NCBI GenBank assembly: GCA_030649055.1
Contig: JAUSGH010000013.1
Location: 1-60,505 of the forward strand
Origin: a bacterium
GTDB lineage: Bacteria; Patescibacteriota; Minisyncoccia; UBA6257; JAUSGH01
Length of the DNA stretch: 60,505 bases
Direction of reading: 5' to 3'
Under the pieces are notes generated by a model. The model ran no database searches. It saw only the letters and a list, made by a program, of their open reading frames with translations, and was not told where the DNA came from. Every line of letters starts with the position of its first letter. Position 1 is the first letter of the stretch. The translations under genes and the position numbers were made by a program. Positions 5,025-59,131 of the stretch are shown piece by piece.

Positions 5025-5241
5025 GAGATAGCTTCATTAGGGTTATTCGGCACAGCTTCATTGGCTTATAGCTTCTTAGCTTCGTTAGCTTGAGAAATGT
5101 CAAATGCCTCGATGGGAATAACGCCACCAAGGTCTTGTACATGGATTTGTTTTTTGGTTTATTGCCTGCTATGCTACACATAGTTCTTCACGGAATCGTT
5201 CTGTGAAGTTTTTCTTGTCCTCGTTTCACACGGAGGATGCC

Positions 5242-5679
5242 ATGAGTGCGCCCAGGCTCACCGGATTGCTGCTCACGATTTTCGGATTCATCGGAGTGGT
5301 CGTCTCTGCCGGCTTCATTTACAAGGACGAGGGCCTTTTCCTCATCGTGCTCGCCTGCGCCTTCGTAACCGCCGTCGGTGTCGTTGTCATCGCGTGTTCC
5401 TCGTATGGCTGGCCGACGGACAGCAATAGTCTTACCGCCAATGCCCGCTACCCAAACCCCGAACGCATTGACCTCGAACCGGAGACCTCCGCTCTCGTCA
5501 TCACACACGCAGGCAAGGGCTACACCATGCTCTTTGACCGTGGGGCATGGCGGCTGTTCGCCTTGTGGCCGGAGGGCGTGAAAGACGATACCGCGGTCAT
5601 CGTGGCGAACAACGACGGCACGAAGCTCGTGCCGCAACCCAAAACCGAAGATGCCAAGGACGAGGACACGAAGACGTAA
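5242..5679 (+). CDS. Hypothetical membrane protein (GC-rich cassette gene)
   Basis: SD ggagga lies 4 nt before ATG 5242. Two TM helices, then a soluble tail. Followed by the 5770..5799 hairpin. Confidence 0.55.
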   Translation: MSAPRLTGLLLTIFGFIGVVVSAGFIYKDEGLFLIVLACAFVTAVGVVVIACSSYGWPTDSNSLTANARYPNPERIDLEPETSALVITHAGKGYTMLFDRGAWRLFALWPEGVKDDTAVIVANNDGTKLVPQPKTEDAKDEDTKT

Positions 5680-5769
5680 TCGCTCATCGTGCCGTTACCG
5701 CAACCCATCACCAGCGCCCGCCGACTTCATACTCGGCGGGCGTCATTGTTTATTTTTTTATAAAAGGAA

Positions 5770-5799
5770 GGCCCCGATGGTGTTACCCAAAGGGGCCTT
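5770..5799. terminator. 3' hairpin, degenerate member of the GGCCTCGATGGTGTTACCCATCGAGGCC family
   Basis: ggccccgatggtgttacccaaaggggcc. It sits between the convergent ORFs 5242..5679 and 5821..6426. Confidence 0.5.
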
Positions 5800-5820
5800 T
5801 GCGCGTCTTCTTCCTGTTGA

Positions 5821-6426
5821 CTAAGCCTCCGGCGGCGCAGCCGGTGCCTTCGGTTCGGTGACGGCCTCCGGCACAGCCACGGCCTCGGCGCGGAACTTCG
5901 CGAGCTCCTCTTCCGCCTTCATCGCCCGAGCCTCCATAAACGTGAGCTGTATTCTCAGTTTCTGACCAGCTTCCACGATCCCTGCCGTGTGAAGCAACTG
6001 CCTCAACATCGCCTTCTCGTGTTCGGCCTTCAACTTGTCAACAACCGCCCATCCCTTCGCCATCTCCTTCTCGTGCTTGGCCTTTATGGCGTCAAACCTC
6101 TCGCCAGCGCGAGCTGCGACCTCGCTCACGCAGTCGTTGTAGACTTCGCAGAGAATCGCGCTCAACGCTCTCATGGCGTCGCACTCGTTCTTTGGGTCAA
6201 GTGTCGCGTTCGTCCGCTGACCCAAGAGCGACGCAAGGAGACCATTGCCATTCCCGACATGGTCATGCAGGACGCACAAAACCTCCGCCTTCCTACCGTC
6301 AGGCATGACATACTTGTCTCCAATGCCGTACGTCTCGCCATTGTTCTTCCGGGAGGATTCGTACCGTACTGGGAGCACCTTGCCCGCCAACGTCAGCACC
6401 AGGAACTGTCCGGACAACTGCGACAT
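5821..6426 (-). CDS. Hypothetical protein (GC-rich cassette gene), C-terminal coiled-coil/charged region
   Basis: SD aaggag lies 7 nt before ATG 6426 (MSQLSGQF...). The promoter region overlaps the 6501..6540 palindrome. Confidence 0.55.
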   Translation of the reverse strand: MSQLSGQFLVLTLAGKVLPVRYESSRKNNGETYGIGDKYVMPDGRKAEVLCVLHDHVGNGNGLLASLLGQRTNATLDPKNECDAMRALSAILCEVYNDCVSEVAARAGERFDAIKAKHEKEMAKGWAVVDKLKAEHEKAMLRQLLHTAGIVEAGQKLRIQLTFMEARAMKAEEELAKFRAEAVAVPEAVTEPKAPAAPPEA

Positions 6427-7213: not shown

Positions 7214-7295
7214 TTCGAAAAACAATAAAATAATGTCAAAGGCCTCGAGATGGTGGACATTTCGAAAAACAATAAAATAATGTCAAAGGCCTCGA
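7202..7295. repeat. 47-bp tandem direct repeat x2 (operator half-site + TTGACA-containing module)
   Basis: gatggtggacatttcgaaaaacaataaaataatgtcaaaggcctcga occurs at 7202..7248 and again at 7249..7295. Confidence 0.9.
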
Positions 7296-7320
7296 TGGGA
7301 TGGAACCCATCGAGGCCTTT
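7286..7320. terminator. 3' hairpin of ORF 7331..7795 (GGCCTCGATGG...CCATCGAGGCC family)
   Basis: aaaggcctcgatgggatggaacccatcgaggccttt. Confidence 0.6.
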
Positions 7321-7330
7321 GCGCGAACTT

Positions 7331-7795
7331 CTACAGACTGATCTTGATCACGATCCGGTAGCCATCCGGACGGAAGTCCGGACACCATGTATCCTTCGCT
7401 CCGGGAGGGATGACGGGTTCCAATGCCGGGTACAGCACGAGCCCCGTGAGGTCCGCTCTCCGAAACACGCCTTTCCCGATCTTGACGATCGCTCCGCCCT
7501 CGCCCCTTGCACCGCGCGACTTCAGGAATTGCTCCATGCCATCGCACATGGACTTTACCTCCTCCCACATGAGGGAGGCCTGTCCGCGCAGCCACCCGGC
7601 CTTGCAGCGCAACCACTGCCGATTTCCTGTCGGACGAGCGACCTCGCTCATCTCCACGCAGGCCACACGGATCTGCTTTTCCCCGCTCTCGATCGCGGGG
7701 AGAATCTTCGCCGTTGCGCAGTCTACCAGATCCCAGATGAACTTCCGGTCCGCCTTGCTCACGGCCTCCGGAAACCGTTCCAGTGCAACCGCCAT
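7331..7795 (-). CDS. Hypothetical protein (GC-rich cassette gene)
   Basis: 154 aa. SD aggagg lies 6 nt before ATG 7795. Of four overlapping ORFs here, this is the only frame with both an SD and a 3' hairpin. Confidence 0.5.
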   Translation of the reverse strand: MAVALERFPEAVSKADRKFIWDLVDCATAKILPAIESGEKQIRVACVEMSEVARPTGNRQWLRCKAGWLRGQASLMWEEVKSMCDGMEQFLKSRGARGEGGAIVKIGKGVFRRADLTGLVLYPALEPVIPPGAKDTWCPDFRPDGYRIVIKISL

Positions 7796-7879
7796 GATCT
7801 TCCTCCTTCACATTGAACCACTAAGACTAACGACATTATAATTGAAATCCTTGCTGCTGTCAAGTCCTGTAAAATGCGG

Positions 7880-7938: not shown

Positions 7939-8394
7939 CTACTCGCCACACACGCACCGATGATCATGGATGAGCTCGATGAGGTTTTTCAGCTTGCTCT
8001 CCACCATGGGAAGCGGAACTCTAGCATCGCCAACCGCCCAATCTCTTATCACGATCGGAATCGTGCTAAAGAGGCGCGCGACGAGTTCCGAGTGCTTCGG
8101 TGATTGCTCGAGAAACCCCGTAAGCATGTCTTGGAACCGCTCGGAGCACGCCATGCGGCCTTCAGGCACATTGCACCACTTTACGCACCGATGCCGGTTG
8201 ATGAACACGATGACCATCGGGCGCATCGGCTGATCCGGAATATGTGCTCCGGTGGACCACTTGTCCACCATGAGATGGTGGACACCAAACTCGTGCGCGA
8301 GAGCATCGCAGTGTCCCACGACGCGTTGCACAAACTCGGCAACGACCTTCTGAAACTCTTCCGCGGTGATTTCCTTATGCTTCTCCGCGTTCAT
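7939..8394 (-). CDS. Hypothetical protein with two XRE-HTH-like repeats (GC-rich cassette gene)
   Basis: 151 aa. SD aggaggagg before ATG 8394. Internal repeat FGVHHLMVDKWSTGAHIPDQPM / FSTIPIVIRDWAVGDARVPLPM resembles the V.RW..G...P helix-turn-helix signature. Confidence 0.55.
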   Translation of the reverse strand: MNAEKHKEITAEEFQKVVAEFVQRVVGHCDALAHEFGVHHLMVDKWSTGAHIPDQPMRPMVIVFINRHRCVKWCNVPEGRMACSERFQDMLTGFLEQSPKHSELVARLFSTIPIVIRDWAVGDARVPLPMVESKLKNLIELIHDHRCVCGE

Positions 8395-10220: not shown

Positions 10221-10223
10221 CCC

Positions 10224-12405: not shown

Positions 12406-12741
12406 ATGGAGCGTCCCTACGAGGTGGTGCTGGTTTTCACCGCCGTCATTCTTGCCTTCGTCGGCGTTGGCGCCTACACCGTGGATTATGACGGTGCTTG
12501 CTGGTGGACGGTTTCCGGCTGCGCGCTCGTCGCCGTCGTACACGCGCGAAATTTCTGCGCCAAGACTGTATCGCTACCCGCCTCCGTCGCGACCATCGTG
12601 ATAGGCGCAGTGATGCTACTTGCCGGGATCGTGACTTACTTCACCGACGGCAACTTCAGCTGGGGATGGCCCATCGGGGGCATCGTCGCGATGGTCGTCG
12701 GCGCCATCACGGCGACCGAGCACGACGAAGGTCGCGCGTGA
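12406..12741 (+). CDS. Hypothetical small membrane protein (GC-rich cassette gene)
   Basis: 111 aa, about 4 TM segments. SD ggagga lies 6 nt before the ATG. Followed by hairpin 12760..12797. Confidence 0.6.
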   Translation: MERPYEVVLVFTAVILAFVGVGAYTVDYDGACWWTVSGCALVAVVHARNFCAKTVSLPASVATIVIGAVMLLAGIVTYFTDGNFSWGWPIGGIVAMVVGAITATEHDEGRA

Positions 12742-12759
12742 CACCCGCGAAAAAAACAA

Positions 12760-12797
12760 AAGAGGCGGTCGCCTATGGTGACTGCCTCTTCCTGTTT
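12760..12797 (+). terminator. Intrinsic terminator-like hairpin with T-run
   Basis: aagaggcggtcgcctatggtgactgcctctt followed by cctgtttt. Confidence 0.65.
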
Positions 12798-15890: not shown

Positions 15891-15919
15891 TTGACACTGT
15901 TTACAGAATCATGTATGCT
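15891..15919 (+). promoter_or_regulatory. Near-consensus sigma70 promoter for the 15991-16606 cassette
   Basis: TTGACA (15891-15896), 17-nt spacer, TATGCT (15914-15919). Confidence 0.55.
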
Positions 15920-15990
15920 GTTTGCAGCACAAATCGCCAAAGCAACGGTGCGTTTGGCGAAGTCCGTAAACTTCTATTGGAGGGCAACCG

Positions 15991-16197
15991 ATGGACAACG
16001 CCATCGTGCAGTCAAGCAACGGCGTGAAGATCGTGACCGTTCCGATTTCCGGAACGCGGATTCCAATCGACCTTCTCGCGAAGATCGTGAGCGAATGGCT
16101 GACCGAGCTCGGAGCTGACGAGTTTTGCATGATCTCGGAGGTAGCGATCCACTGCAAGGCCACGGATGGTAAGCTCACCATCTCCATCCAGCGCTAG
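15991..16197 (+). CDS. Hypothetical small protein (GC-rich cassette gene)
   Basis: 68 aa. SD ggaggg lies 7 nt before the ATG. Confidence 0.5.
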   Translation: MDNAIVQSSNGVKIVTVPISGTRIPIDLLAKIVSEWLTELGADEFCMISEVAIHCKATDGKLTISIQR

Positions 16198-16243
16198 GGA
16201 CCAACCCACCCGCCACGGCAACGCCTTTTGGAGGAACTGACGC

Positions 16244-16606
16244 ATGCCAACTCCCGAAACGGGAACCGTCGAGCCTGAGGAACCCGCACAGCAGGAAGCA
16301 TCGCCACTGCCGGCCGAAACGACGGAAATGAACGGTCGGCTGACGAAGGTGGACGGGGACCTCATCTTCTTCTTCGACTGCGACGATCTTCCCACCGCCA
16401 TGAGGCGCTGCGCAGAGGCGCTGGGGACGTACTTCAAGCACGAAGACAACCGGAGGATCACAGTCCTCTCCTCCGGCAGCAGCTTCAAGTGGCGGAAGTA
16501 CCTGCATCCGCAAACCAACCAGATCTTCGAAGGGCTCGTCTACCAGGTGCTGATCGAGCTCCGGCCGAAGACCAAGCAGGAACTCACGGAGGAAGGAATC
16601 GAGTAG
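16244..16606 (+). CDS. Hypothetical protein (GC-rich cassette gene)
   Basis: 120 aa. SD ggagga lies 8 nt before the ATG. Acidic, Pro-rich N-terminus. Confidence 0.5.
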   Translation: MPTPETGTVEPEEPAQQEASPLPAETTEMNGRLTKVDGDLIFFFDCDDLPTAMRRCAEALGTYFKHEDNRRITVLSSGSSFKWRKYLHPQTNQIFEGLVYQVLIELRPKTKQELTEEGIE

Positions 16607-16657
16607 CCCGCAACCGACCCCGCTGTGCATGACGCATGGCGGGGTCAATTCATTTTA

Positions 16658-16686
16658 TTGACGCCCGCCATTCCCTTTGTTACGCT
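16658..16686 (+). promoter_or_regulatory. sigma70-like promoter for 16734..17702
   Basis: TTGACG, 17-nt spacer, TACGCT. Confidence 0.45.
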
Positions 16687-16733
16687 CTGGATAGCAACGC
16701 ACAAACAACCATTCACGCTACAGGAGGTGACCG

Positions 16734-17702
16734 ATGACCAGACCGATTACCGAAGATGAACTGGACATCGCCAAGATGGAAAAGGAAACCGGCATCCCCG
16801 AGTACAAAATCCGCCGAGCGCTGGACCTTCCGCTCTCCCCCGTTGAGCAGCACTTCACGGAGATGCTGAAGAACGCCAAGACGCCCGCCGCGATCACGAG
16901 AATCATTCTCATCGTTGAACCGGAAACCACGGTTGGGCGGAGCGCGGTGAGAAAGCTCATCCACAAGTCGCGCGCCCGCAAAGATGTTGTCCGGATCTTC
17001 AGGACGGTTCCGAACTACCACTCGGAAATGCACCGCGCCTATGAGAAGCTCGTAGAACTCTCCGGCAACGAAAACCCCGACGGCGAGGACGACAACGAAA
17101 ATAACGCCGACCCCGACCGCAACTCCGATCCCGCCGCCGCCGACAACAAACGCTGCCTTCGCGAGCTCGTGGAGGTCAGCACCATCGTGCCCATGTTCTC
17201 CGTCGCCGAAGAACTCCTCCTCGTGAAGATGGCAAAGTTCTTCCAGGACGAGAATGATCCCAGCAAGGTTGACGTTTCCGGAATGGCCGAGGAAACCAAT
17301 ATCGCCGAGTCATTCATCCGTTCCGCGCTCAAGCTGCCGACACTCGAGGATGAGCAGCGTATCGCGAACCTCATGGCGCTATGCGATACGCGCGATGCTC
17401 TACTCAATCTCTCCGGGGCGATTCAATGGCGGAGCATCCTCGGACTGCAGGCCGCGCGCCAATACATTCCGCTCTCCAGCCGCGATGAGCTCATTGCACT
17501 GGCAGGAACGCTTCCGGACGACTCCCCGGCGCGATCCGAGGTGTATGTCGCACTCCTTGCGCGCTCAACGACGCTGGAAGAAGTGTGGGAAGTCTATAGC
17601 GTGATTGCCGAAAACCGCGCGCTCGACGAAGACAAGGCAATCATCCGGCTCGCCGAGTTCTTCCTGAAGACAGCGACGGACGAGACGAAAACGAATCCCT
17701 AA
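16734..17702 (+). CDS. Hypothetical acidic protein with an internal duplicated HTH-like module (GC-rich cassette gene)
   Basis: 322 aa. SD aggagg lies 6 nt before the ATG. Repeat KETGIPEYKIRRALDLP / EETNIAESFIRSALKLP. Confidence 0.55.
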   Translation: MTRPITEDELDIAKMEKETGIPEYKIRRALDLPLSPVEQHFTEMLKNAKTPAAITRIILIVEPETTVGRSAVRKLIHKSRARKDVVRIFRTVPNYHSEMHRAYEKLVELSGNENPDGEDDNENNADPDRNSDPAAADNKRCLRELVEVSTIVPMFSVAEELLLVKMAKFFQDENDPSKVDVSGMAEETNIAESFIRSALKLPTLEDEQRIANLMALCDTRDALLNLSGAIQWRSILGLQAARQYIPLSSRDELIALAGTLPDDSPARSEVYVALLARSTTLEEVWEVYSVIAENRALDEDKAIIRLAEFFLKTATDETKTNP

Positions 17703-17716
17703 CACGAACGACGGAC

Positions 17717-17755
17717 GGTCCCGGGTAGCCATAGGCTACTCGGGGCCGCATCATT
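17717..17755 (+). terminator. Intrinsic terminator-like hairpin (apex GTAGCC-ATA-GGCTAC)
   Basis: ggtcccgggtagccataggctactcggggcc, a 14-bp stem, followed by gcatcatttt. Confidence 0.65.
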
Positions 17756-22990: not shown

Positions 22991-23494
22991 TTATCCACAG
23001 CTCCCTTTTTGCGACGCCCGTCGCGCCGCATTTACCTTCCCCCACCATCGCCTCCGCCGCAGCCTAGCATCTCTTTTTGTGATCCACATTGCGAGTCCGA
23101 ACGCGACGCCGGTACCGAGTGCGATGATCATCACCGCCGGCATCGGTTCAATCCGCTTGTCGAGCGTGAGCCATGCGACGCCGACAAACACCGGAATCGC
23201 TCTGAACCCGAACGCCCACGCCATCATCAGAGCAAACCCGGTCACAAAGAAGGCGACCGGAAAGGTCACTGCGGCGACTGCGACGACCGAGGTCGCTCCA
23301 TAGAATCGCGCCTCGTCTTCCTCCATACCGCTCTCGTGACCGGTGGTCACGTCACGCGCCGCCTTCATCGCGCGGTCGTCCGTGCACGCCTGCCACGTCG
23401 CCCATGTCGCGCCGACCATGCAGATCGACAAAACAATCAGCGCCTTGACGATGAATTCGCGAAGCTGCTCGCGATCACACTTCTTGTCCAACAC
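22991..23494 (-). CDS. Hypothetical membrane protein (GC-rich cassette gene)
   Basis: GTG start at 23494, 6 nt after AGGAGG. Several TM helices. Promoter at 23586..23614. Confidence 0.55.
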   Translation of the reverse strand: MLDKKCDREQLREFIVKALIVLSICMVGATWATWQACTDDRAMKAARDVTTGHESGMEEDEARFYGATSVVAVAAVTFPVAFFVTGFALMMAWAFGFRAIPVFVGVAWLTLDKRIEPMPAVMIIALGTGVAFGLAMWITKRDARLRRRRWWGKVNAARRASQKGSCG

Positions 23495-25133: not shown

Positions 25134-25619
25134 ATGAAACGCAGTTATACCACGCGAGAGTTGCTCCGTTCTCCGGAGCTCATCCTGCTTCCCGCGCTCG
25201 CGAACACGCTCATCCGAGAATCGTGCAGTCGGGACGCAATCGCGATCGCGCAACATCCCGCGCGGTGGATGCGCCGGCGCGTCACCAAGGAAACACGCGA
25301 CGGGGCGGGAAGAATTCTGCGCGAGACGCCGTTGCTCAGCAACATCGCAGCGCATCTCATCACCGTGGCGAAGCGGTTTGTCACGAACGTTCCGCGGCCG
25401 AAGTCAGAATCGTACAAAAAAATCGCGCGCGATGCCAAGCGCTACCTCGCGCTGCGCGTGCAGCAACACGCGTCCGACAATGAGCTTCTGGCAATCACTG
25501 TGTTCATTGAGGCGCTCGGCTACGAACGCGTATCGTGCCGCTTGAGGCAAGTCAAGAGCTTCCGGGACATGAAGCCCAAGAATGATGGGGCCTACATGAG
25601 TCGCGATTCCCGCTGGTAA
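25134..25619 (+). CDS. Hypothetical protein (GC-rich cassette gene)
   Basis: 161 aa. SD aaggag lies 7 nt before the ATG. Confidence 0.5.
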   Translation: MKRSYTTRELLRSPELILLPALANTLIRESCSRDAIAIAQHPARWMRRRVTKETRDGAGRILRETPLLSNIAAHLITVAKRFVTNVPRPKSESYKKIARDAKRYLALRVQQHASDNELLAITVFIEALGYERVSCRLRQVKSFRDMKPKNDGAYMSRDSRW

Positions 25620-43713: not shown

Positions 43714-44538
43714 CTATTTCTTCTTTTCGTCACCAAGCGCCAGCACGATGACCTCAAAATGCACGGGGTGAAGACTCTGTTCGTCTGCTTCGGAGCACAA
43801 CTGCAACGCATGCGGCTCTCCGAAGTACACATCAAGGTGCGCGACGTTTCTCTTCACGGGACAAAACACCCCCGACCCCGAATCGCCACGACTTTCCGGC
43901 GCGAAGAGCTCTGCGCCAACTTCACCGGCTTTCTTGGTGAAACGGCGCTCCATCCGCGCAACTTCCCGCACTGCCGCAGCGTCCATGGACCGCGACCAAC
44001 GCTGTGACATGTTGTTATGCGGCGTCCGACAGATAGGACACTGGTTGAATCCAAGCTCCCACACCAGGAACGCGGTGAATGCGAGCGACATACGCCGGTG
44101 ACAGAAGAACCGCGCGTCAGCTCCCCTGGCGGTTGCCGCATAACGGAAACACACCGCGAGCAGCGTCGCGTCCTTTTCGCTCTGCAAATCCAGCGCAGAA
44201 GCAAAGAGATCGCGATGCCGTAAGTCACCGACCGGGATGACGTCACCAACCGCGACGCACCTCTTTGGCGCATCATCATACGCCAAGTCCGGAAAGTGCG
44301 TCCAGTAATGGCATTCATCGCTATAGGTACGGAGGACATTCTCGGCGATGTTAAAGAGCTCATGCAACGACTTCTTCCCTGTCATGTCGAGCAACTGTTG
44401 CACGCCGCCCTTCACCCTCCACCACGAATAACGCGCGTAGAGGTAGATGTTCCAGAGCGCTACCCTTCCCCAAAACGACGCGATGAGAAATATGCTAATC
44501 GCGCCGAGGATGAGATACGTCTTATCGACATCCACCAT
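43714..44538 (-). CDS. Hypothetical membrane-anchored protein (GC-rich cassette gene)
   Basis: ATG at 44538 preceded by aaggag. N-terminal TM helix (YLILGAISIFLIASFWG). Cys/His-rich soluble domain. Confidence 0.55.
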   Translation of the reverse strand: MVDVDKTYLILGAISIFLIASFWGRVALWNIYLYARYSWWRVKGGVQQLLDMTGKKSLHELFNIAENVLRTYSDECHYWTHFPDLAYDDAPKRCVAVGDVIPVGDLRHRDLFASALDLQSEKDATLLAVCFRYAATARGADARFFCHRRMSLAFTAFLVWELGFNQCPICRTPHNNMSQRWSRSMDAAAVREVARMERRFTKKAGEVGAELFAPESRGDSGSGVFCPVKRNVAHLDVYFGEPHALQLCSEADEQSLHPVHFEVIVLALGDEKKK

Positions 44539-46740: not shown

Positions 46741-46743
46741 GGG

Positions 46744-50492: not shown

Positions 50493-50498
50493 ACAGCC

Positions 50499-50527
50499 AG
50501 TATAGCAGAGGCGGGCGAGGTTGTCAA
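50499..50527 (-). promoter_or_regulatory. Consensus sigma70 promoter driving the 50051..50492 transcript
   Basis: Minus strand: TTGACA (50527-50522), 17-nt spacer, TATACT (50504-50499). Confidence 0.65.
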
Positions 50528-50597: not shown

Positions 50598-51887
50598 CTA
50601 CTTCGCCATGCAGCGACGAAGAATCTTGATGCCTTTCGCAAGGTCCTTCGTACTGATGTTCACCGGCACCATACACCGAAGCGCTAGTTCCCCCGCGGAA
50701 ATGATGGACACTCCGAGCTCCGGGTGCTTCCGCGCCCGTTCCGCCACAGCATTGCGCTCTTCTACCGTCCGGAACACGATGCGCCGCATGAGCCCGAGTC
50801 CTTCCGGAGCGAACTCCGCAAGCAGTACGATGCGCCTCGTGAGGTCTTCCCTGTTGAGCGCTTCCAACTGCTCAATGATGTTGAATGCCGCTTCCGTGGC
50901 AAAGGCATTCCCACCAAAGGTATTGGAGTGCTCCCCGGGAATCGGGAAGTCAAACTCCGCCCGCGCAATCGTTGCGCCGATGGGAGCACGCCCTCCCCCC
51001 AACGCCTTGCTGAGGCAGATGATGTCCGGTTCCAGGAAGCCGTCTCCGACCCTGAAGTACTCGCAGGCGAACATCCTGCCGGTCCTCATCATGCCGGTCT
51101 GCACTTCGTCCACCACGAGGTAAACATCGTGCTTCCGGCACTCCGCGACGAGCAGTTGCAGGCAGTCCTCGTCCATAACGCGGATGCCGCCCTCGCCCTG
51201 AATGAGCTCCACAAACATCGCCGTCGCATCCGCGAAGGGCTGCAATTTCAGCATCTCCTTGAATGCGGCGATGCTCTCCGGATTGTTACGCTCGGGGAAC
51301 GGGAGGTGCCGAACAGGAATTGCCCGATCCTCTTTCACCTTCATACCCACCGAGAGGTCGCCGCGGTCCAGGAAGAACGCCTCGGTGTGCTTCTTCTTGC
51401 TGCAGTTGAGCGACAGCGCGAAGCCCGTGCGTCCGTGGAACGCTCCTCCGAACGCGCAGAACACCCGCTTCCCCCGGAGACGCTCTTCCGCTTCGTCGCC
51501 GTACACCGCCATGTACTCATGGTAGCGGCGTGCCAGGCACATCTTCACCGCCGCTTCCACGCTCTCGGCGCCCGAGTTGCCGAAGAACACCTTTTTCGGG
51601 TGCTTGCCGGGCGTGATAGCGCAGAGCTTCTCTGCCAGCTGCACCTCGGCGTTGTTGAACCACTCGTTGCCGGGAATCATGAGGAGCTTCCCGTCGTGCC
51701 CAAGCGGCGTCACACCGATGCCGGAGCAGAAGTCAATGAGCTCCACCTGCTGCCCGCTTTCCGCGAGCACGCCCCAGATGCGCGACCCTTCCCCATAAAG
51801 CGGAACGAGGTCGCTGTCGATCGTCGTGTTCACGACGTGCTTCTTGCCGAGGCGATAGATCTCGGCGGGACTGAGCTGACGCAGCAT
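50598..51887 (-). CDS. Class III pyridoxal-phosphate-dependent aminotransferase (GC-rich cassette gene)
   Basis: Start MLRQLSP (51887) preceded by aaggag. DEVQTGMMRTGRMFACEY and LSKALGGG (PLP lysine). Promoter at 51938..51966. Confidence 0.8.
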   Translation of the reverse strand: MLRQLSPAEIYRLGKKHVVNTTIDSDLVPLYGEGSRIWGVLAESGQQVELIDFCSGIGVTPLGHDGKLLMIPGNEWFNNAEVQLAEKLCAITPGKHPKKVFFGNSGAESVEAAVKMCLARRYHEYMAVYGDEAEERLRGKRVFCAFGGAFHGRTGFALSLNCSKKKHTEAFFLDRGDLSVGMKVKEDRAIPVRHLPFPERNNPESIAAFKEMLKLQPFADATAMFVELIQGEGGIRVMDEDCLQLLVAECRKHDVYLVVDEVQTGMMRTGRMFACEYFRVGDGFLEPDIICLSKALGGGRAPIGATIARAEFDFPIPGEHSNTFGGNAFATEAAFNIIEQLEALNREDLTRRIVLLAEFAPEGLGLMRRIVFRTVEERNAVAERARKHPELGVSIISAGELALRCMVPVNISTKDLAKGIKILRRCMAK

Positions 51888-52034: not shown

Positions 52035-52265
52035 ATGAACGACGCAATCGAGGAGCCGACACTGCTTTGTCCGCCGGAACAGTGCGGAAATTGCGGCACT
52101 CCAGCTGATCTTAGCAGCAGCACGCATACGAACGTAGAAAACTGGCGCTGCCCTGGGTGCATGAAGAAATGTTGCAACGCCTGCTTCAAGCCCAACTACG
52201 ACGGCGACGGCAGTACATTCTTCTGCCCCAACCCGAGCTGCAAGAAGCTGCTCAAGTTCCCGTAG
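52035..52265 (+). CDS. Cys-rich zinc-ribbon-like small protein (GC-rich cassette gene)
   Basis: 76 aa. SD ggagga. CPPEQCGNC, CPGC, CCNAC, CPNPSC. An extended -10 (TGATAGAAT) lies upstream. Confidence 0.55.
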   Translation: MNDAIEEPTLLCPPEQCGNCGTPADLSSSTHTNVENWRCPGCMKKCCNACFKPNYDGDGSTFFCPNPSCKKLLKFP

Positions 52266-52380: not shown

Positions 52381-54489
52381 TTACTTTTTTGCTCTGCCCT
52401 CAATAATGCCAAGTGCTATATTCCCAGGGACTTCCTCATAATGATCAAACTCCATCGTAAAGTTGCCTCTGCCTTGCGTCATGGAGCGAAGTTTCGTGGC
52501 GTAACCGAACATTTCGGCGAGCGGCACCATGGAGTCAATCACTTTGATGTTGATGCGGTCGCTCATGTTTTCAATTTTGCCACGCTTCGAGCTGATGTCG
52601 CCGGTGACGTCACCCATGTAATTCGCGGGGACAAGCACCTGCACTTTCATGATCGGCTCAAGCAAAATCGGGCTCGCACGCCTCACAGCCGACTGGAACG
52701 CCATGGAACCGGCAATTTTAAACGCGGCCTCGCCTGAGTCCACTTCGTGGTAGGAACCGTCATAAAGCTCAACTTCCACATCCACAAACTTGTAGCCGGC
52801 GATGACACCGCGATCAATGGCTTCCGAGATGCCTTTTTCCACTGCCGGAATAAACTCCTGCGGAATGGAACCTCCCTTGATGGCGTTTACAAATTCAAAT
52901 CCCTTGCCGCGCTCCAATGGCTTGATTCGGATGCGCACGTGGCCGTACTGACCGCGGCCTCCGGACTGCTTGATATATTTTCCTTCAGCTTCGGCTTCGG
53001 CTTTGATGGTTTCTTTATACGCCACCTGCGGCCGGCCGACGTTGGCGCCCACGCCAAATTCGCGCTTCATGCGCTCCACGAGCACCTCAAGATGCAGTTC
53101 ACCCATACCGGAGATAATCGTCTCACCGGTTTCCGGATCGCCCGCCACGCGGAACGTCGGGTCTTCTTCCGCCAAGCGGTGCAAGGCAAGTCCCATTTTT
53201 TCCTGGTCGGCTTTCGTGTTCGGTTCAATGCGGATGCCGATGACCGGCTCAGGGAAAATTATTTTTTCCAAAAGTACCGGATGCTCTGGGTCGCACAACG
53301 TATCACCGGTTGTCGTATTTTTCAAACCCACAAACGCGCCCAATTCTCCGGCATGAATGTCGTCAATGTCTTCGCGATGATTGGCGTGCATGCGCACCAT
53401 ACGGCCGACGCGCTCTTGGGCGTCTTTCGTTGAATTCAAAATGTAGCTGCCTTTTTTGAGCACGCCGGAATACACGCGGAAATATGTCAGCGAGCCGACA
53501 AACGGATCCGCGGCGATTTTAAACGCCAACGCCGTGAACGGCTCTTCATCTTTCGGATGACGCTCAATGGGCAGGTTGGTTTTCAAATCGGTCGCTCTTG
53601 TCGGCGGCACATCGCTCGGCGCCGGAAGGTAGTCAATGACTGCGTCAAGCATCAGCTGGACTCCCTTGTTTTTTAAGGCAGAGCCGGTCACAACCGGAAT
53701 AATGGTTCCTTTGATGGTCGCGATGCGCAACATGCGCTTCAATTCTTCCAGCGGCGGAACTTTTCCTTCCAAATATGCCGCCATCATCGCGTCTTCCTGC
53801 TCCACGATTTTCTCCACTAATTCGCCGTGGCGTTTCTTCGCCTCGGCTAGAGAATGCTCCGGAATTTCAGATTCAATAATATTCTCACCGCGCTCACCCT
53901 CAAAGTGATAGGCCTTCATCTTCATCAGATCAATAAGCCCCTCAAACGCGCCCTCAAGACCGATCGGCAGCTGAATCGGCATCGCGTGCGGATTCAACCG
54001 TTCACGAATAGACGCCAAGCTTCCTTCAAATGAGGCGCCCATGCGGTCCAGTTTGTTGATAAAGCAAATGCGCGGCACGGCATATTCGTCCGCATAGCGC
54101 CAGTTAGTTTCGGATTGCGGTTCAACGCCGGAAACGCCGTCAAACACGACGACGGCGCCGTCCAAGACGCGCAAGCTGCGCTTCACCTCCACGGTGAAGT
54201 CAATGTGACCGGGAGTGTCAATGAGGTTGATGCGGTGTTCAAACGCCTTGTCGCCGTTACGATACGTCGCAGTCCAAAAACAGGTCGTCGCGGCGGAGGT
54301 GATGGTGATGCCGCGCTCCCGCTCCTGATCCATCCAGTCCATGACCGTGTCGCCCTCGTGCACTTCGCCGATTTTGTGCGACACGCCGGTATAAAAAAGA
54401 ATACGCTCAGAGACGGTTGTTTTTCCTGCGTCGATATGCGCGATGATGCCGATATCTCTAACTTTGTCGATGGGATATTGTCGGGACAT
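52381..54489 (-). CDS. fusA: Elongation factor G
   Basis: 702 aa. [18 protein letters not shown]. Confidence 0.97.
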
Positions 54490-54578
54490 AACGATAAAAG
54501 CTTCTTTAGCTTATCAGCTTCATTAGCTTTTTAGCGCGTCGCTCTAAGGAAGCTAATAAGCTAACGCAGCTAGCAGTT

Positions 54579-55046
54579 CTACCAGGAGAAGTGGGCGAAG
54601 GCCCTGTTCGCTTCCGCCATACGATGCGTATCAAGCTTCTTCTTCATTGCGCTGCCTTCGTTCTTTGCCGCGAGGATGAATTCCTCCGCCAATCGCGCCG
54701 CCATCGGTTTTCCTTTCTTTGATTTCGCCGCCTCAATCAGCCACTTTGCCGCAAGCATAAATTTGCGCGTGGGCCTGACCTCGCGCGGCACCTGGTAGTT
54801 CGCGCCGCCAACGCGGCGAGTTGAAACCTCCACGAGTGGCGTGACGTTCTCCAGCGCTTTTTCAAACACCGGCAACGGCTCCAGCTTGGTTACTTTCTGA
54901 ATTTCGGCAAATGCATCGTACATCACCTTCTCCGCGGTCGTCTTTTTTCCCTTCTTCATTAAATAGTTAACGAAGCGTCCGACGACGGCGCTCTGGTATT
55001 TCACATCCGGCTCATGTTCGCGCTGATAATTTCTTTTGCGTCTCAT
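54579..55046 (-). CDS. rpsG: 30S ribosomal protein S7
   Basis: 155 aa. S7 sequence in str-operon context. Confidence 0.95.
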   Translation of the reverse strand: MRRKRNYQREHEPDVKYQSAVVGRFVNYLMKKGKKTTAEKVMYDAFAEIQKVTKLEPLPVFEKALENVTPLVEVSTRRVGGANYQVPREVRPTRKFMLAAKWLIEAAKSKKGKPMAARLAEEFILAAKNEGSAMKKKLDTHRMAEANRAFAHFSW

Positions 55047-55090
55047 AATTTCTTCTTATCTCTTACTTCTTATTTCTTACGTCTTGCTTT

Positions 55091-55513
55091 TTACTTCTCC
55101 CCTGCCTTCTTCCGCTTTGCGCCATATTTACTCCGTTGCTGTTTGCGCGCTTCAACGCCAACAGTGTCCAATTTTCCGCGCACAATGTGGTAGCGCACAC
55201 CCGGAAGGTCTTTCACGCGGCCTCCACGAATGACCACCACCGAGTGTTCCTGCAAGTTATGCCCTTCGCCCGGAATATAGGCAGTGACCTCCATACCGTT
55301 CGTCAAACGCACGCGCGCGACTTTGCGCAAGGCGGAGTTTGGCTTTTTTGGAGTCGTGGTAAACACCTTTAAACACACGCCACGCTTAAACGGCGAGGGC
55401 GTAAAAAGCGGACGGTTTTTCACGTAGTTAAAATATTTCTGCAAAGCCGGCGATTTTGATTTTTTAGACAACGGTGCACGACCGCGCTTCAATAATTGAG
55501 AAATTGTAGGCAT
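55091..55513 (-). CDS. rpsL: 30S ribosomal protein S12
   Basis: 140 aa. [13 protein letters not shown]-terminus and [10 protein letters not shown]. Confidence 0.96.
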
Positions 55514-55587
55514 GAGTTAGCTTTTAGCTGATAGCTTATAGCTTATAGGAAAACCTTGAAGTAAGTCAAGGGCTGATTCGGTGGGTT

Positions 55588-56214: not shown

Positions 56215-56315
56215 GGGAGTATTCGCGAATAATGCTAATCTTCTTCAAAATAATGCGAATAGGGAGCGATTATTTGCGTTATTTCGTCTTCATTCGCATT
56301 ATTAGCGATTACTCC
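56215..56315. promoter_or_regulatory. Inverted pair of ATTCGC(R)TTATT..(C)GATTACTCC motifs between two minus-strand genes
   Basis: ggagtattcgcgaataatgctaat ... aataatgcgaat ... attcgcattattagcgattactcc. The left arm abuts ATG 56214. The right arm supplies the last codons (YRSNR stop) of 56302..57378. Confidence 0.5.
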
Positions 56316-57378
56316 TATACGATAACATCAGCGGCCAGGACTGCATATATGAAAGACCGAGTTTGTCGCCCAATCCTTTCCAAGTGGGCATGCCCAAGGC
56401 ACAGCGTTTTTTGTTCAAGATGGCCACGCCGCCGGAACTACCGTTGTCAATAATCGCGGACCCTTCATAAATTGGCCCCGCGTCTTCCTCAAAAATGTTC
56501 GCGACGTACCCAACAGAGACCGCGTTCTCCGGTCCCGTAAAACGCGGGTAGCTGACGATGGTAATTCGGTCGCCGATCTCCACATCCGCCACTTCGCAAA
56601 ACCCGATGCCCAGGTCGTCATACGACACGGGCTGAACCGCGACGCGCGATTTTGTGGCGCCGAGTTTTAAGAGCGCGAAGTCATATGTATCGTCAAACAC
56701 GCGCCTTACGACCTCCGCGGCGTACACCGTGTTATCTCCAAAGACCACTTCGCACTGCGGCGTGCCCGTTATCTCGTTATCCGCAATCACGTGCGCGTTC
56801 GTCATCACCACAAATTCGTCGCCGACCGCCGGATAACGCCCTAACAGCGAACCCGAACCGGCGCGAAAATTTACCGTGTTCCCCGAGCGAGCGATCGTGC
56901 ACCGAATCCGCGCCGTTGCCTGCAAGAGCGAATTAATAAAATCCTTCGGCAACGGCTCGCCGCCGATTTTTTTGAGCCGTTCAAGTTCAGTGCTCACGGT
57001 TTCCACTTTCGTCTCTAGCGTCCCGATGGTTTTCCCTTGCTCGCCCAATTTCTGCTGCTGCACCGTGGATAATTGCCCTTGCACATCCAATAATCTTGAC
57101 TGCGCGCCGAGTGTTTCGCTCAATTTCGCGCGATCATTTTCCAACACTGACTTTGTTTTTGCCAACGCATTATTCTCGCCCTCCAATGTTTTGATACGCC
57201 GCGTAAGCGTGGTTTGTTCTTTTTCGAAACGATAGAGCGTTTCAAGCGCCCGCTGCTCCGCCGCGCTGGCACGCGCCGCGGACTCTTGGTACAGCGTAAA
57301 TATGCGAAACGACAATGCGCCGCTTCCGGCGAGCGCGACGGCAAAAACAACCGCTAATGATACGCCGAAATTCCTCAT
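56302..57378 (-). CDS. Membrane-anchored trypsin-like (S1) serine protease with an N-terminal coiled coil
   Basis: 358 aa. TM helix, long coiled coil, TNAHVI (His), DFALLKL (Asp), GSSGG (Ser). Confidence 0.7.
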   Translation of the reverse strand: MRNFGVSLAVVFAVALAGSGALSFRIFTLYQESAARASAAEQRALETLYRFEKEQTTLTRRIKTLEGENNALAKTKSVLENDRAKLSETLGAQSRLLDVQGQLSTVQQQKLGEQGKTIGTLETKVETVSTELERLKKIGGEPLPKDFINSLLQATARIRCTIARSGNTVNFRAGSGSLLGRYPAVGDEFVVMTNAHVIADNEITGTPQCEVVFGDNTVYAAEVVRRVFDDTYDFALLKLGATKSRVAVQPVSYDDLGIGFCEVADVEIGDRITIVSYPRFTGPENAVSVGYVANIFEEDAGPIYEGSAIIDNGSSGGVAILNKKRCALGMPTWKGLGDKLGLSYMQSWPLMLSYRSNR

Positions 57379-57380
57379 TG

Positions 57381-58325
57381 CTATATCCCAAACTTTTCCT
57401 TCTGTAACACGGGATAAAACTGCGGATCAATAACGCGCGTGAAACATACCCGGCCCGCATCATGGTCCCAGTTTGCGCCATAGGGCTCATAAACAGCCCG
57501 CGGCTTTACCGCTCCCGTCAAAACAGCGCCGGTTGAAGGGAGGTCGAACGCCGCGCAGAGTTCAAACGCCAACTCGCCGGTCGTCCGATACTCATAGATC
57601 GCGACGGTTGAAGGGTCTGTCGGCGCGCGGAAACCAGAAATGGGATCTTCCAGGTCCGCCAGTGCTTGCGGCAATTTCCCTTTGCTCTGCCAATAGTAAA
57701 TAATCTGCCCTTGCGTCATCTGCAAATCGTTCACGCGACGCTCATCAAAACGATATAATCGCGCGCGGAGCGGTGATCCGGCGGTGAAGAATCCGCCGAT
57801 AACCGCAACGAGTATAATGGCAATAATCGCGCCGACAAATAACCGTAAGGATTTCTCATTCCACTTATTTTTCAGATCGCGCAGATAAAACATGAATATC
57901 GCGCCCGTGGTCAGAAACACCGTCACGATTTTAAGCGCGAACCGCACCGTGAGCTCTCCACCCAAAAAGTTGTACACGAGCGTCACCAAATCGCCGATGA
58001 TGACGATTGCGGTCACGAACAACGTAAAATGCACAAGCCACTTCCTGACGCGCAATTCGCGCTTTTCAGGGATCGCCGCATAGTCGCGATAGAGCAAACG
58101 CATCACATAGCAATGCACCGGATACACGATGATAAGTGATGCCATCGCAAAACGTATGGTTCCGGCGTAACCCGAAAAATACTCCGGCTGGAGTTGGTCG
58201 GGAAAATAGATGTTGATGTATTGCCAAATCAGCGTAATAAAATTCACCGCGACGTAATACAGCGTACCGATGGATAATATATGCAGAAAGACGTCCTTTG
58301 GGGTGCTTTTAATGTTGGTGTCCAT
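57381..58325 (-). CDS. Integral membrane protein (N-terminal domain resembles the DUF5671 type common in CPR genomes)
   Basis: 314 aa, 5-6 TM helices, then a soluble C-terminal domain. The family name is from memory and was not searched. Confidence 0.5.
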   Translation of the reverse strand: MDTNIKSTPKDVFLHILSIGTLYYVAVNFITLIWQYINIYFPDQLQPEYFSGYAGTIRFAMASLIIVYPVHCYVMRLLYRDYAAIPEKRELRVRKWLVHFTLFVTAIVIIGDLVTLVYNFLGGELTVRFALKIVTVFLTTGAIFMFYLRDLKNKWNEKSLRLFVGAIIAIILVAVIGGFFTAGSPLRARLYRFDERRVNDLQMTQGQIIYYWQSKGKLPQALADLEDPISGFRAPTDPSTVAIYEYRTTGELAFELCAAFDLPSTGAVLTGAVKPRAVYEPYGANWDHDAGRVCFTRVIDPQFYPVLQKEKFGI

Positions 58326-58411
58326 AATTCTATTCTAGAAAACTTTTACATAAATGGAAAGGAGGCGCTCTGCGGTGCAGATGCGCCTCCTTTTGCGTAC
58401 CGATGCGATCG

Positions 58412-59131
58412 TCACGCGACGATGACGCGCCAGTCTCCCAACGACGCGTCGTTATCCGCACCGACAACGATGACATTCGCGGTCATCTGCATGGACGATG
58501 CGAGCGACTTTGCCATCGTCGCGTCGCCGACGATGACGGCGCCGGCGTAAAGGAACGGAACGATGTAGATGCTATACCTGAACCGCCCCTTGAGCTCATT
58601 CCCGACGCGCTTCGGAAAGCCCTTGCCCAGCGCGTCCATGAGATGCTTGTTCAGAGCGTCGCAGAGGGGAATGCGCAGCGACGACTCATCGAGACGTTTG
58701 CCGATGACGTTGCCGAGCGCGCCGTAGAACAAGGCATCGTAGTACGGCCTGCCCCAGCAGATCTCGTTCTCCATCGCCTCATTCCACACCTCCTCATCGA
58801 AGAAGAGATCCGCATCAAGAGGCGCGATGGGAACATCGCCGATAACGGCGACGATCCTCCGCGACGCAATGTAACTTCCCATGGAGACGAAGGTCAACTG
58901 CCGGACGTACAACCCGGACGCCTTGAACGCCTCCGCGATCGCGTTCGCGTCCACCGCATCCGCGCTCGAAAGGTCGTACTTACCAACCTCCGCCTTCAGG
59001 AACAGCGGCTCGAAGAGCTCCCTTGCCTGAAGGACAAGCTCCGGATTCTTCGACTCCTTCGCGAGATATGCGAAGAATGCCTCGCGGTTCACCGTCGGCT
59101 CCGCCACGGTCCTACTCATAACGACCTCCAT
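58412..59131 (-). CDS. Hypothetical protein (GC-rich cassette gene)
   Basis: 239 aa. SD ggggagga lies 4 nt before ATG 59131. Confidence 0.5.
   Translation of the reverse strand: MEVVMSRTVAEPTVNREAFFAYLAKESKNPELVLQARELFEPLFLKAEVGKYDLSSADAVDANAIAEAFKASGLYVRQLTFVSMGSYIASRRIVAVIGDVPIAPLDADLFFDEEVWNEAMENEICWGRPYYDALFYGALGNVIGKRLDESSLRIPLCDALNKHLMDALGKGFPKRVGNELKGRFRYSIYIVPFLYAGAVIVGDATMAKSLASSMQMTANVIVVGADNDASLGDWRVIVA

Follow-up and report, generated by a model that had tools for sequence, protein, structure and literature searches.

Why should a bacterial chromosome carry G+C-rich genes, preceded by strong Shine-Dalgarno (SD) sequences, between housekeeping operons that lack them, and were such genes acquired or inherited? 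The question is raised by contig JAUSGH010000013.1 of assembly GCA_030649055.1, all 60,505 nt of which were analysed and are referred to here as the window. The DnaE protein is most similar to those of metagenome-assembled genomes (MAGs) labelled Harrisonbacteria, Wolfebacteria, Jorgensenbacteria, Paceibacterota or Patescibacteria (56-72% identity), hence the source is a Paceibacteria-type member of the Candidate Phyla Radiation (CPR). We propose, with a probability of about 0.6, that the window holds two native and vertically inherited gene classes: fast-evolving, SD-translated cassettes set within an SD-independent housekeeping backbone.

A self-trained codon model called 66 genes in the window (G+C ~53%), and a missed gene at 40896-41465 brings the total to ~67. 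The first-pass annotation, made from the letters of the sequence, had pointed to about 27 GC-rich open reading frames (ORFs). All 24 for which it gave coordinates are real ORFs with coding signal; with 38029-38235 added, the number of cassette genes stands at 25. These were compared with 40 core genes, the products of which were assigned by Pfam and include cysS, dnaB, recR, rplU, queA, tgt, murF, ftsI, rsmH (MraW family), mraZ, rplJ, rplL, trmD, rnhB, dnaE, thrS, rmuC, a family-Y DNA polymerase (dinB-like), fusA, rpsG, rpsL and others. The two classes are simply interleaved, and the periodic architecture first described was not found.

Signals that separate the two classes

Far from being equally common upstream of core genes, a GGAG or GAGG motif at -4 to -18 was found for 25/25 cassettes and 3/40 core genes (p = 5e-15). 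The cassette SD had been placed 4-9 nt before each start; its spacing has a median of 7 nt and lies within 3-9 nt for all cassettes except 28045, which has a weak AAGGA, two starts having been corrected. With one best-of-candidate-starts rule for all genes, third-position G+C (GC3) correlates with the best energy of SD pairing to the anti-SD (Spearman rho -0.70, p = 1e-10), and strong SDs are concentrated in high-GC3 genes (Fisher odds ratio 26, p = 1.8e-7), in support of the early suggestion that two gene classes with different signals are present.

GC3 itself ranges from 0.66 to 0.84 in cassettes and from 0.53 to 0.72 in core genes. When bimodality was tested within the window, a two-component mixture (means 0.60 and 0.75) was modestly better than a single component, with a difference in Bayesian information criterion (delta BIC) of ~5. 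GC3 was dropped as sole classifier on account of this weak bimodality and replaced by the third-position G+C of codons with A/T at positions 1-2, which spans 0.63-1.00 in cassettes and 0.32-0.68 in core genes, with an empty bin at 0.55-0.60. G+C at codon positions 1-2 is ~0.50 in cassettes and ~0.48 in core genes.

The regions beyond the stop codons differ as well. The median minimum free energy (MFE) of folding of the 60 nt past the stop is -27.1 kcal/mol for cassettes and -11.6 kcal/mol for core genes (p = 4e-7). Many cassettes had been said to end in perfect hairpins of 10-14 bp; perfect stems of at least 10 bp in fact follow eight of them, and two core genes. The strongest terminator-like hairpins in a scan of 1-20 kb are all located 3' of cassette genes. 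By four thresholds set post hoc, core genes satisfy 0-2 and cassettes 2-4.

Near-consensus promoters had been listed at seven sites. Five of these (15891, 23586, 25075, 35548 and 50499) have a 17-nt spacer and 10-11/12 consensus matches, candidate 35587 reaches 9/12 only and 51938 is absent from the scan output. The promoter at 7863-7835 is a perfect 12/12 match, and that at 50499 drives an ORF-less RNA and no cassette gene. Within 120 nt upstream of the start, the best TTGACA-N16-18-TATAAT score of cassettes is not significantly above that of core genes (p = 0.13), and the general claim that cassettes have better promoters was dropped on this result. The classes differ instead in the position of the -10 box. 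A TAnnnT hexamer lies 24-40 nt upstream of the start in 10/25 cassettes. Of the 40 core genes, 11 have one that ends 5-9 nt ahead of the start, as does none of the 25 cassettes (chance ~4% per gene, binomial p = 6e-7). The 11 core genes are dnaE, thrS, trmD, rnhB, rplU, rmuC and those at 6564, 47589, 49309, 57381 and 1-1143, which bears out the initial description of SD-less core genes with a -10 hexamer near the ATG.

The region from -25 to +35 of core genes is weakly folded (-6.7 kcal/mol) compared with internal windows (-14.1 kcal/mol, p = 6e-7). The corresponding values for cassettes are -15.5 and -16.9 kcal/mol, a difference that is not significant. Some 12 core genes start no more than 50 nt downstream of a same-strand gene, and their SD energies range from +1.6 to -6.4 kcal/mol, none having GGAGG. 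Operon-internal core genes thus also lack an SD, and the split follows gene class and not operon position.

Codon usage forms a further divide, which we describe as two dialects. The codon shares in cassette and core genes are.82 and.38 for AAG,.76 and.35 for TTC,.74 and.40 for TAC,.72 and.43 for ATC, and.47 and.23 for CTC; families starting with two G/C bases are used near-identically. Cassette GC3 is flat over codon contexts (0.76, 0.74, 0.75), whereas that of core genes depends on the G+C of the first two positions, climbing from 0.46 to 0.73 as this increases. The resulting third-position shift (delta logit) is 1.34, 0.66 and 0.13 for codons with 0, 1 and 2 G/C at positions 1-2. Cassette proteins are also richer in Cys (2.1% vs 0.6%) and Trp. 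Only two transfer RNA (tRNA) genes occur in the window, tRNA-Glu(CUC) at 17819-17894 (-) and tRNA-Val(CAC) at 23656-23728 (+). Both decode G-ending codons and each adjoins a cassette group (15991-17702 and 22991-23494, respectively); GAG is enriched in cassettes (.60 vs.39 in core genes), GTG is not.

In the arrangement that we favour, the first native class comprises ~60% of genes (replication, translation, cell-wall, tRNA-modification and other conserved genes) and does without an SD. Its first-in-unit genes, often with a -10 box alone 5-9 nt before the ATG, would give rise to leaderless messages or leaders of a few nucleotides; the remainder either abut the gene before them or have leaders rich in A/U, in some cases with tandem repeats. 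With the -25 to +35 region kept unstructured, initiation would proceed via accessibility and not via SD pairing, and we infer from these sequences that core mRNAs are leaderless or SD-independent. The second class (~37-40% of genes, 27% of codons) consists of autonomous units of one to three genes, each unit having a sigma-70-type promoter ~25-40 nt upstream, a GGAGG SD at ~7 nt, G/C-ending codons throughout the ORF and a GC-rich hairpin terminator. Its lineage-restricted products are S1 proteases, DUF5701 and DUF5654 proteins, small membrane proteins, tandem winged-helix and helical-repeat proteins and an aminotransferase. These genes are probably inherited with their neighbours; their proteins evolve ~8 times faster, and the content of their slots turns over at deeper distances. 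The mRNAs of this variable class would be separate units closed by a hairpin, and initiation at their structured, GC-rich starts would depend on a strong SD, probably read by a canonical anti-SD. Its codon dialect appears to be actively maintained and not to be the fading scar of an import. It is conceivable, if doubtful, that the classes amount to two translational regulons, an SD-independent maintenance set and an SD-dependent, fast-evolving, GC3-rich set with hairpin-stabilised mRNAs. Anti-SD availability or a codon/tRNA-modification step would then act as the global switch of a lineage-specific (possibly host-interaction) programme, and selection for differential translation or mRNA stability would keep the dialect.

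Inheritance of the cassettes and competing explanations

The window was compared with loci of related genomes, labelled L082, L084, L085, L091, L165-L168 and so on. L091/L085 and L165-L167 represent one organism recovered in independent samples (dnaE 94.7% identical to the window), L168 is a relative with fusA 89% identical, and L084 (trmD 83% identical) and L082 are short contigs of relatives. An exact-sequence search with rpsL for contigs of the same strain retrieved only one contig, of 1.2 kb. Cassette slots in L091/L085, L165-L167, L168, L084 and L082 contain cassette-type genes, mostly positional orthologues of the window cassettes, so a synteny check with close relatives finds conserved placement with slight slot variation. 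For the ~16 cassettes with slots covered by L091/L165, positional orthologues exist for all but two (48531 and 58412), those of 35647 and 38029 being weak only. The orthologues in L091, L165, L084, L082 and L168 keep GGAGG at the same spacing, the 3' hairpin and high GC3; core genes next to them remain low in GC3 and free of SDs. GGAGG cores are conserved while flanking bases vary, which points to a probably functional anti-SD.

Rates were obtained by the Nei-Gojobori method for 15 core and 10 cassette pairs between the window and L091/L165. Median amino acid identity is 92.5% for core genes and 51% for cassettes (p = 1e-4). The corresponding values are 0.95 and 1.24 (p = 0.08) for synonymous divergence (dS), 0.054 and 0.42 (p = 1.4e-4, ~8-fold) for non-synonymous divergence (dN), and 0.065 and 0.31 (median; range 0.10-0.87, p = 3e-4) for dN/dS. 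As dN/dS is below 1 in every cassette tested, these are real, constrained genes, subject to purifying selection. Synonymous changes between weak (W) and strong (S) bases are roughly symmetric, at 173 vs 136 in cassettes and 678 vs 618 in core genes. By a three-taxon parsimony count, core genes have an equilibrium GC3 of 0.62, equal to the inferred ancestral 0.63. The aminotransferase cassette has 0.74 because S-to-W changes are rarer in it (5.4% vs 8.6%, p = 0.019); W-to-S rates are equal in both classes.

Homology searches say little about the products. Seven cassettes have Pfam domains and 18/25 have no Pfam family. The assigned ones are two S1 proteases (one with PDZ), two DUF5701 paralogues, a DUF5654 protein and a class-III aminotransferase, one weak sub-threshold match being disregarded. 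Eight orphans concatenated as one query gave 0 matches against 5.8 billion proteins (best 8000 candidates, with sensitivity possibly reduced), and an exhaustive HMMER scan of 1.84 billion representatives returned 0-6 homologues for each of five orphans. Ten cassette proteins matched no PHROG or PADLOC family, which lends no support to a phage or defence origin, and no integrase was found among the genes scanned against Pfam. About half of the products have predicted transmembrane (TM) or signal segments, the overall mix being membrane, secreted and cytosolic.

It had been suggested that the cassettes are a separately regulated, horizontally acquired pool. They are indeed separately signalled and lineage-restricted; recent acquisition finds no support, in view of syntenic orthologues with dS like that of core genes. 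In its full form, this alternative holds that promoter-SD-ORF-terminator modules came from a GC-richer, SD-using donor and that GC3 is an un-ameliorated scar, which we regard as improbable though still worth weighing. Cassette composition and codon usage do deviate from host core genes, as in transfer islets or morons, and the dialect, the raised Cys and Trp, the near-orphan products, the moron-like module anatomy and the two groups adjoining tRNA genes could all be taken as marks of import. So could some presence/absence variation among close relatives: 58412 and 48531 have no counterpart in L165, and one cassette-type gene that the window lacks is present in L091, another in L165. At greater distance, six cassettes around dnaE (25134, 26536, 35277, 35647, 38029 and 38324) have no match in any of 80 genome loci whose dnaE identity does not exceed 72%; several of these more distant genomes do have S1 proteases upstream of dnaE, again with a strong SD.

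Set against these marks, positional orthologues occur in five independent relative assemblies, and the ten cassettes tested have a dS like that of their flanking core genes, where transfer islets would show no co-divergence. At dS ~1 the cassettes have kept their GC3, SD and hairpins unaltered, W/S changes run about equally in both directions, and the polarised equilibrium GC3 (0.74 for the aminotransferase, 0.62 for core genes) speaks against an import scar. With a per-lineage dS of ~0.5-0.6, a simple amelioration calculation suggests that an import scar should have roughly halved; keeping a 0.2 GC3 excess in both lineages in this way would require an implausibly extreme ancestral GC3. Nor do those products with homologues enough to compare, a minority, point elsewhere: all named homologues of the aminotransferase, down to ~36% identity, are from CPR, DUF5701, DUF5654 and syntenic S1 proteases recur in relatives, integrase, PHROG and PADLOC matches are lacking as described above, and GC-rich relatives do not make general use of SDs. 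We conclude from this comparison that the cassettes are probably native and vertically inherited at this depth.

If the cassettes were simply a highly expressed set, then promoter, SD, C/G-ending optimal codons and terminators would all be selected for output. We consider this unlikely. The C-ending NNY codons (TTC, TAC, ATC, AAC, GAC) are classic optimal codons, rplL has a GC3 of 0.72, and AAC, GAC, CAG and GAG are somewhat raised in ribosomal-protein genes too. However, ribosomal-protein and elongation factor G (EF-G) genes have no SD and resemble other core genes in their codons for Lys, Phe, Tyr and Ile (AAA.57, TTT.61 and TAT.60 in ribosomal-protein genes), with TTG for Leu as opposed to CTC in cassettes. 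The dialect is therefore not the product of ordinary selection for high expression, and translational selection was rejected as its main cause. Highly expressed genes usually evolve slowly, yet cassette proteins evolve ~8 times faster than those of the core; moreover, ~40% of genes cannot all rank as top-expressed.

Equally unlikely is the view that cassette slots are recombination hot spots, in which GC-biased conversion or repeated allele import lifts GC3 and divergence and the expression signals are incidental. The extreme protein divergence at fixed junctions, some turnover of content, the slightly higher cassette dS (1.24 vs 0.95) and the slightly higher G+C at codon positions 1-2 would fit. 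A uniform bias predicts equal shifts in all codons, however, and the observed shift depends on codon context; uniform GC-biased gene conversion was rejected on this point. In addition, W-to-S changes are equal in both classes with only S-to-W lower, and the co-occurrence of SD and hairpin, like the conservation of SD cores amid varying flanks, is left unexplained. An artefact, be it a chimeric contig or GC-rich ORFs that are not genes (e.g. shadow ORFs), would account for the many cassette ORFs with no homologue or Pfam family and for the long antisense ORFs that overlap several of them, but is effectively refuted by the same interleaved order in independent assemblies from different samples (L085, L091, L165-L167, L168), by dN/dS values and Pfam domains as given above, by confident AF2 folds for two orphans (pLDDT 83-84) and by correctly spaced SD sites.

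Neither uniform biased gene conversion nor ordinary translational selection fits as the force that keeps the two dialects apart. It may be mRNA stability, decoding tuned by tRNA modification (tgt and queA are present) or the avoidance of spurious -10-only promoters.

Several points weigh against two native classes. The data comprise a 60-kb window plus short relative loci and not a whole genome, the classification thresholds were picked after the data had been inspected, and GC3 by itself is weakly bimodal. Leaderless starts, lengths of untranslated regions and terminator use are deduced from sequence geometry. The polarised equilibrium GC3 of cassettes derives from essentially one gene, and dS, at values near or above 1, is almost saturated, so that divergent alleles may still have entered the fixed slots by recombination. 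In more distant relatives the codon contrast is faint or missing. Finally, no 16S rRNA 3' end was found in the window or the relative loci searched for an anti-SD check, and about half of Parcubacteria are reported to have no CCUCCU anti-SD (PMC9297842).

Generality and relation to known systems

Among 1875 genes of 119 related loci, 16% have a strong SD. These genes have more stable 3' flanks (-13.4 vs -8.1 kcal/mol, p = 8e-15) and slightly more G/C-ending codons among those starting with A/T (p = 7e-10). In 199 locus pairs, which are not independent, SD genes lie 15 identity points below the typical non-SD gene of the pair (p = 4e-20). The link between SD, terminator and fast evolution is thus a property of the lineage; the large codon split may be specific to the genus of the window.

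Among known systems, phage morons, reportedly described by Juhala, Hendrix and colleagues in 2000, are said to be autonomous promoter-ORF-terminator units of deviant composition between conserved genes. Cassettes share this anatomy, deviating composition and placement between core genes, but reside between housekeeping operons of a cellular chromosome, are inherited with their flanks and match no phage family. The amelioration of horizontally transferred atypical genes is said to go back to Lawrence and Ochman in 1997. Cassettes likewise are a minority with its own codon usage and many orphans. Unlike an atypical class, their dialect persists among relatives at dS ~1 with roughly symmetric W/S changes. 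Atypical genes are reported to average 8-9% of genes (GeneMarkS-2; Lomsadze et al. 2018, PMC6028130), whereas cassettes make up ~37% of genes and are GC-richer, not AT-richer.

The same source describes a group C of genomes with a mix of leaderless and SD-led genes, with Actinobacteria and Deinococcus-Thermus as the phyla named (PMC6028130). As in that description, a Pribnow-type box lies 6-8 nt from the start of many first-in-operon genes and an SD lies ~6-8 nt from others; the -10 geometry of the core genes is the one by which GeneMarkS-2 recognises leaderless transcription (PMC6028130). The split in group C is by operon position, with internal genes using an SD (PMC6028130); here operon-internal core genes have none, and the two sets differ by class of gene, pace of evolution, codon dialect and type of terminator. 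A second parallel is found in the SD-blind ribosomes of Flavobacterium johnsoniae and other Bacteroidia, where most genes are SD-less with A-rich accessible starts and the anti-SD is retained (PMC7797042, PMC9976891, PMC13000453). In both cases most genes, including housekeeping genes, lack an SD and have accessible start regions. In Bacteroidia, however, one or a few genes have a strong SD as opposed to ~40% here. Ribosomes without bS21 translate the SD-bearing rpsU mRNA faster there (PMC9976891, PMC7797042); bS21 is reported to be often lacking from Parcubacteria (PMC9297842), and rpsU is not among the genes of the window. Gating of the Bacteroidia kind would have the anti-SD sequestered by bS21, bS18 and bS6, with SD mRNAs responding to the level of bS21. 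In neither group C nor Bacteroidia is the mode of initiation tied to gene class, rate of evolution and codon dialect. A literature search turned up no account of CPR with leaderless initiation or with gene classes set apart by SD.

An SD limited to variable genes and absent from ribosomal and replication genes reverses the textbook pattern, and suggests a simple global expression handle in bacteria with very few regulators. A dialect that stays distinct within one genome at a synonymous divergence of ~1 is hard to fit with amelioration theory. In terms of annotation, single-model gene finders that assume an SD will misplace core starts in such CPR genomes and may under-call the atypical class. 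The signals also provide a homology-free flag for fast-evolving, lineage-specific genes, natural host-interaction candidates where most such proteins are orphans. In practical terms, cassettes offer promoter, SD and terminator parts, and core genes leaderless promoters, for future CPR genetics.

Individual cassettes, core leaders and other elements

The first cassette, at 5242..5679 (+), encodes 145 aa with 2 predicted TM helices and no Pfam domain (GC3 0.77; SD GGAGG 5 nt before the ATG), and its GC hairpin at 5714-5743 has 11 pairs, 9 of them GC. The 201-aa orphan at 5821..6426 (-; GC3 0.74; SD AGGAG at 6 nt) has no Pfam, PHROG or PADLOC family. A complete unit is seen at 7284..7863 (-), with promoter 7863-7835 (12/12), SD AGGAGG (-11.7 kcal/mol), ORF 7331-7795 (154 aa) and a terminator at 7321-7284 with a 16-bp stem; the ORF matches only itself among 1.84 billion representatives. 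It is followed by a 151-aa orphan at 7939..8394 (-; GC3 0.70; SD AGGAGG) with an 11-bp perfect stem downstream, and by a 111-aa membrane protein at 12406..12790 (+; GC3 0.78; SD GGAGG at 7 nt; hairpin 12760-12790).

Next to tRNA-Glu(CUC) lies a three-gene cluster at 15891..17748 (+), with its promoter at 15891-15919 and hairpins at 16616-16646 and 17716-17748. Its ORFs, each with a GGAGG SD, are 15991-16197 (68 aa), 16244-16606 (120 aa) and 16734-17702 (322 aa, helical repeat), all on the + strand. In L082 the genes for 120 aa and 322 aa have homologues that are 72-74% identical, and an ORF of 75 aa takes the place of the 68-aa gene; an SD and a GC3 of 0.73-0.77 are kept in all three. The AF2 model of 16734 (pLDDT 83.9) is an all-helical, two-lobed helical repeat, for which a fold search of the PDB gave no match.

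Adjoining tRNA-Val(CAC), the cassette at 22991..23494 (-) encodes 167 aa with 4 TM helices from a promoter at 23614-23586 (TTGACA-17-TATGCT). That at 25134..25619 (+; 161 aa; promoter 25075-25103) has a 60% identical homologue in L084, in the same position beside trmD. Upstream of trmD, 26536..27033 (-) encodes a predicted tandem winged-helix protein of 165 aa (GC3 0.79; SD GGAGG; 15-bp stem). The syntenic homologue in L084 is 53-59% identical and keeps the GC3 of 0.79, SD and hairpin, next to a trmD that is 83% identical with GC3 0.57. The AF2 model of 26536 (pLDDT 82.9) weakly matches winged-helix structures of SelB, ESCRT-II and MarR. Both fold searches give fold-level hints only, to a tandem winged helix and a generic helical repeat.

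The S1 protease at 28045..29562 (+; 505 aa; Pfam Trypsin_2 and PDZ; GC3 0.81) has the weak SD AAGGA; S1 proteases with a strong SD lie upstream of dnaE in L005, L006, L007, L011 and L039. The second S1 protease, also assigned by Pfam, is found at 29691..30488 (-; 265 aa), and its L091 orthologue is 48% identical with dN/dS 0.39. Between dnaE and thrS lies a divergent pair, 35277-35516 (-; 79 aa, TM) and 35647-36039 (+; 130 aa), with back-to-back promoters at 35576-35548 (-; 11/12) and 35580-35608 (+). The L091 orthologues are 50% and 28% identical, and the slot holds one extra cassette gene in L091. On the - strand, 38029-38235 (68 aa) and 38324-39076 (250 aa) are accompanied by a promoter at 38298-38270 and a terminator at 37969-37939; the L091/L165 orthologues show 45% and 76% identity, with SD kept and GC3 0.73-0.79.

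The paralogous, secreted DUF5701 pair at 42093-42815 and 42820-43635 (+; Pfam; promoter 41998-42027) has hydrophobic N-termini. Its orthologues, 53% and 48% identical, make up a single 552-aa ORF in L091 and L165. For the ~274-aa cassette at 43714..44538 (-), the start at 44538 was set by the SD AAGGAG 8 nt upstream, and the L165 orthologue (30% identical) has the same SD. The DUF5654 cassette at 48531-48809 (-; 92 aa; Pfam) is present in L168 and absent in L165. Beside it, 48887-49198 (-) encodes 103 aa with 3 TM helices (GC3 0.84; SD AGGAGG, -13.0 kcal/mol), with orthologues 36-38% identical in L165 and L168. The class-III aminotransferase at 50598..51887 (-; 429 aa; Pfam; GC3 0.80) has an SD and a 14-bp stem and is 86% identical in L165. 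A Cys-rich, zinc-ribbon-like protein of 76 aa is encoded at 52035..52265 (+; GC3 0.74; SD GGAGG; 13-bp stem), the L165 orthologue giving dN/dS 0.10. The last cassette, 58412-59131 (-; 239 aa; promoter 59215-59187), has no orthologue at the matching place in L165, and three weak homologues only in the representative library.

Core-like content also varies. The window and L168 share two genes that L165 lacks, for a PD-(D/E)XK nuclease (46744) and the family-Y polymerase (44910); a cupredoxin gene is found in L165 and L168 and not in the window. The region concerned spans 44642-47454 in the window, 11837-13270 in L165 and 9042-14773 in L168.

With regard to core starts, dnaE at 30607..35070 (+) has no SD and a TATGCT that ends 8 nt before the ATG (dN/dS 0.05 against L091). 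Its 1487-aa protein contains an intein with a LAGLIDADG endonuclease domain at residues 759-1178, most relatives having ~1050 aa; long dnaE matches of ~4.4 kb in L085/L091, L001, L002, L007 and L031 are consistent with the same insertion. In thrS at 36136..37917 (+), TACAAT ends 8 nt before the ATG in leaderless geometry. The trmD gene at 25786..26451 (-) has no SD and a TATACT ending 7 nt before the ATG, a geometry shared with L084.

The rpsL-rpsG-fusA operon at 52381..55513 (-) is SD-less and has A-rich tandem-repeat leaders (AAGCTAA, TAAGAA units). Such leaders of SD-less core genes have a period of 7-9 nt, with units AAGCTAA, TAAGAA and ATTAGAAAT/ATTAGAT, and extend to the start codon; they are found at 55514-55560 (rpsL), 54490-54540 (fusA), 24849-24895 (rplJ), 55047-55090 (rpsG), 10180-10223 (dnaB) and 47455-47500. 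Relatives have the same feature with other units, as in dnaB of the dnaE-neighbourhood locus L104 (TCAATAG x4) and fusA of L061 (GGTTAT[C/A] x5). The frequency of tandem-repeat leaders is 2.1% among genes without an SD and 0.6% among those with one, against 0.1% in shuffled controls. Since a repeat of a non-self-complementary unit cannot fold, these leaders may serve as structure-free ribosome landing pads.

Another element is a composite direct repeat, consisting of ATTCGCATTATT, a gap of ~10 nt and then ATT[C/A]GCATTATT[C/A]GCGAWTACTCC. Six copies were observed where 0 are expected by chance, at 17897-17942, 21344-21389, 22773-22817, 56216-56260 and 59519-59564 (-) and at 56292-56315 (+). 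The repeat stops 1-2 nt short of the ATG at the SD-less core genes 21028 and 55588 (M50) and 2 nt short of the tRNA-Glu 5' end, and overlaps the called starts of mraZ and a YggU-like gene. In the relatives L037, L061, L144, L145 and L147, two copies spaced 20 nt apart lie ~12 nt upstream of dnaE, and L113 has a similar pair. The repeat is probably a lineage-wide promoter or regulator site (perhaps for MraZ) of short-leader core genes.

Two apparent gene gaps gave no match in an Rfam scan; one of them contains an unclassified structured RNA, the other a missed protein gene. The RNA is ORF-less, ~430 nt long, and lies at 50055-50527 (-), between a promoter at 50527-50499 (TTGACA-17-TATACT with TG, 11/12) and an intrinsic terminator at 50088-50062. 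It is highly structured (MFE -205.6 kcal/mol, z -9.3), with no Rfam match even at E <=1. It occupies the same place in L165, where 102 predicted pairs include 0 broken and 6 compensatory ones, and its promoter, terminator and 3' domain are conserved in L168. Its 3' end, which precedes the FNR-like gene 49309-50028, has an SD and a mini-ORF of 3-5 codons immediately ahead of the terminator. The element may be either a long cis-regulatory leader or a novel non-coding RNA.

The missed gene, 40896-41465 (+), encodes a membrane protein whose L165 counterpart is annotated DUF2238. Beside it (region 41446-41592) is a window-specific insert of ~125 nt, absent from L091, with two hairpins that share the stem ATTCCCG..CGGGAAT. 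The gene is divergent from rmuC, and the bidirectional promoter region common to both is 100% conserved.

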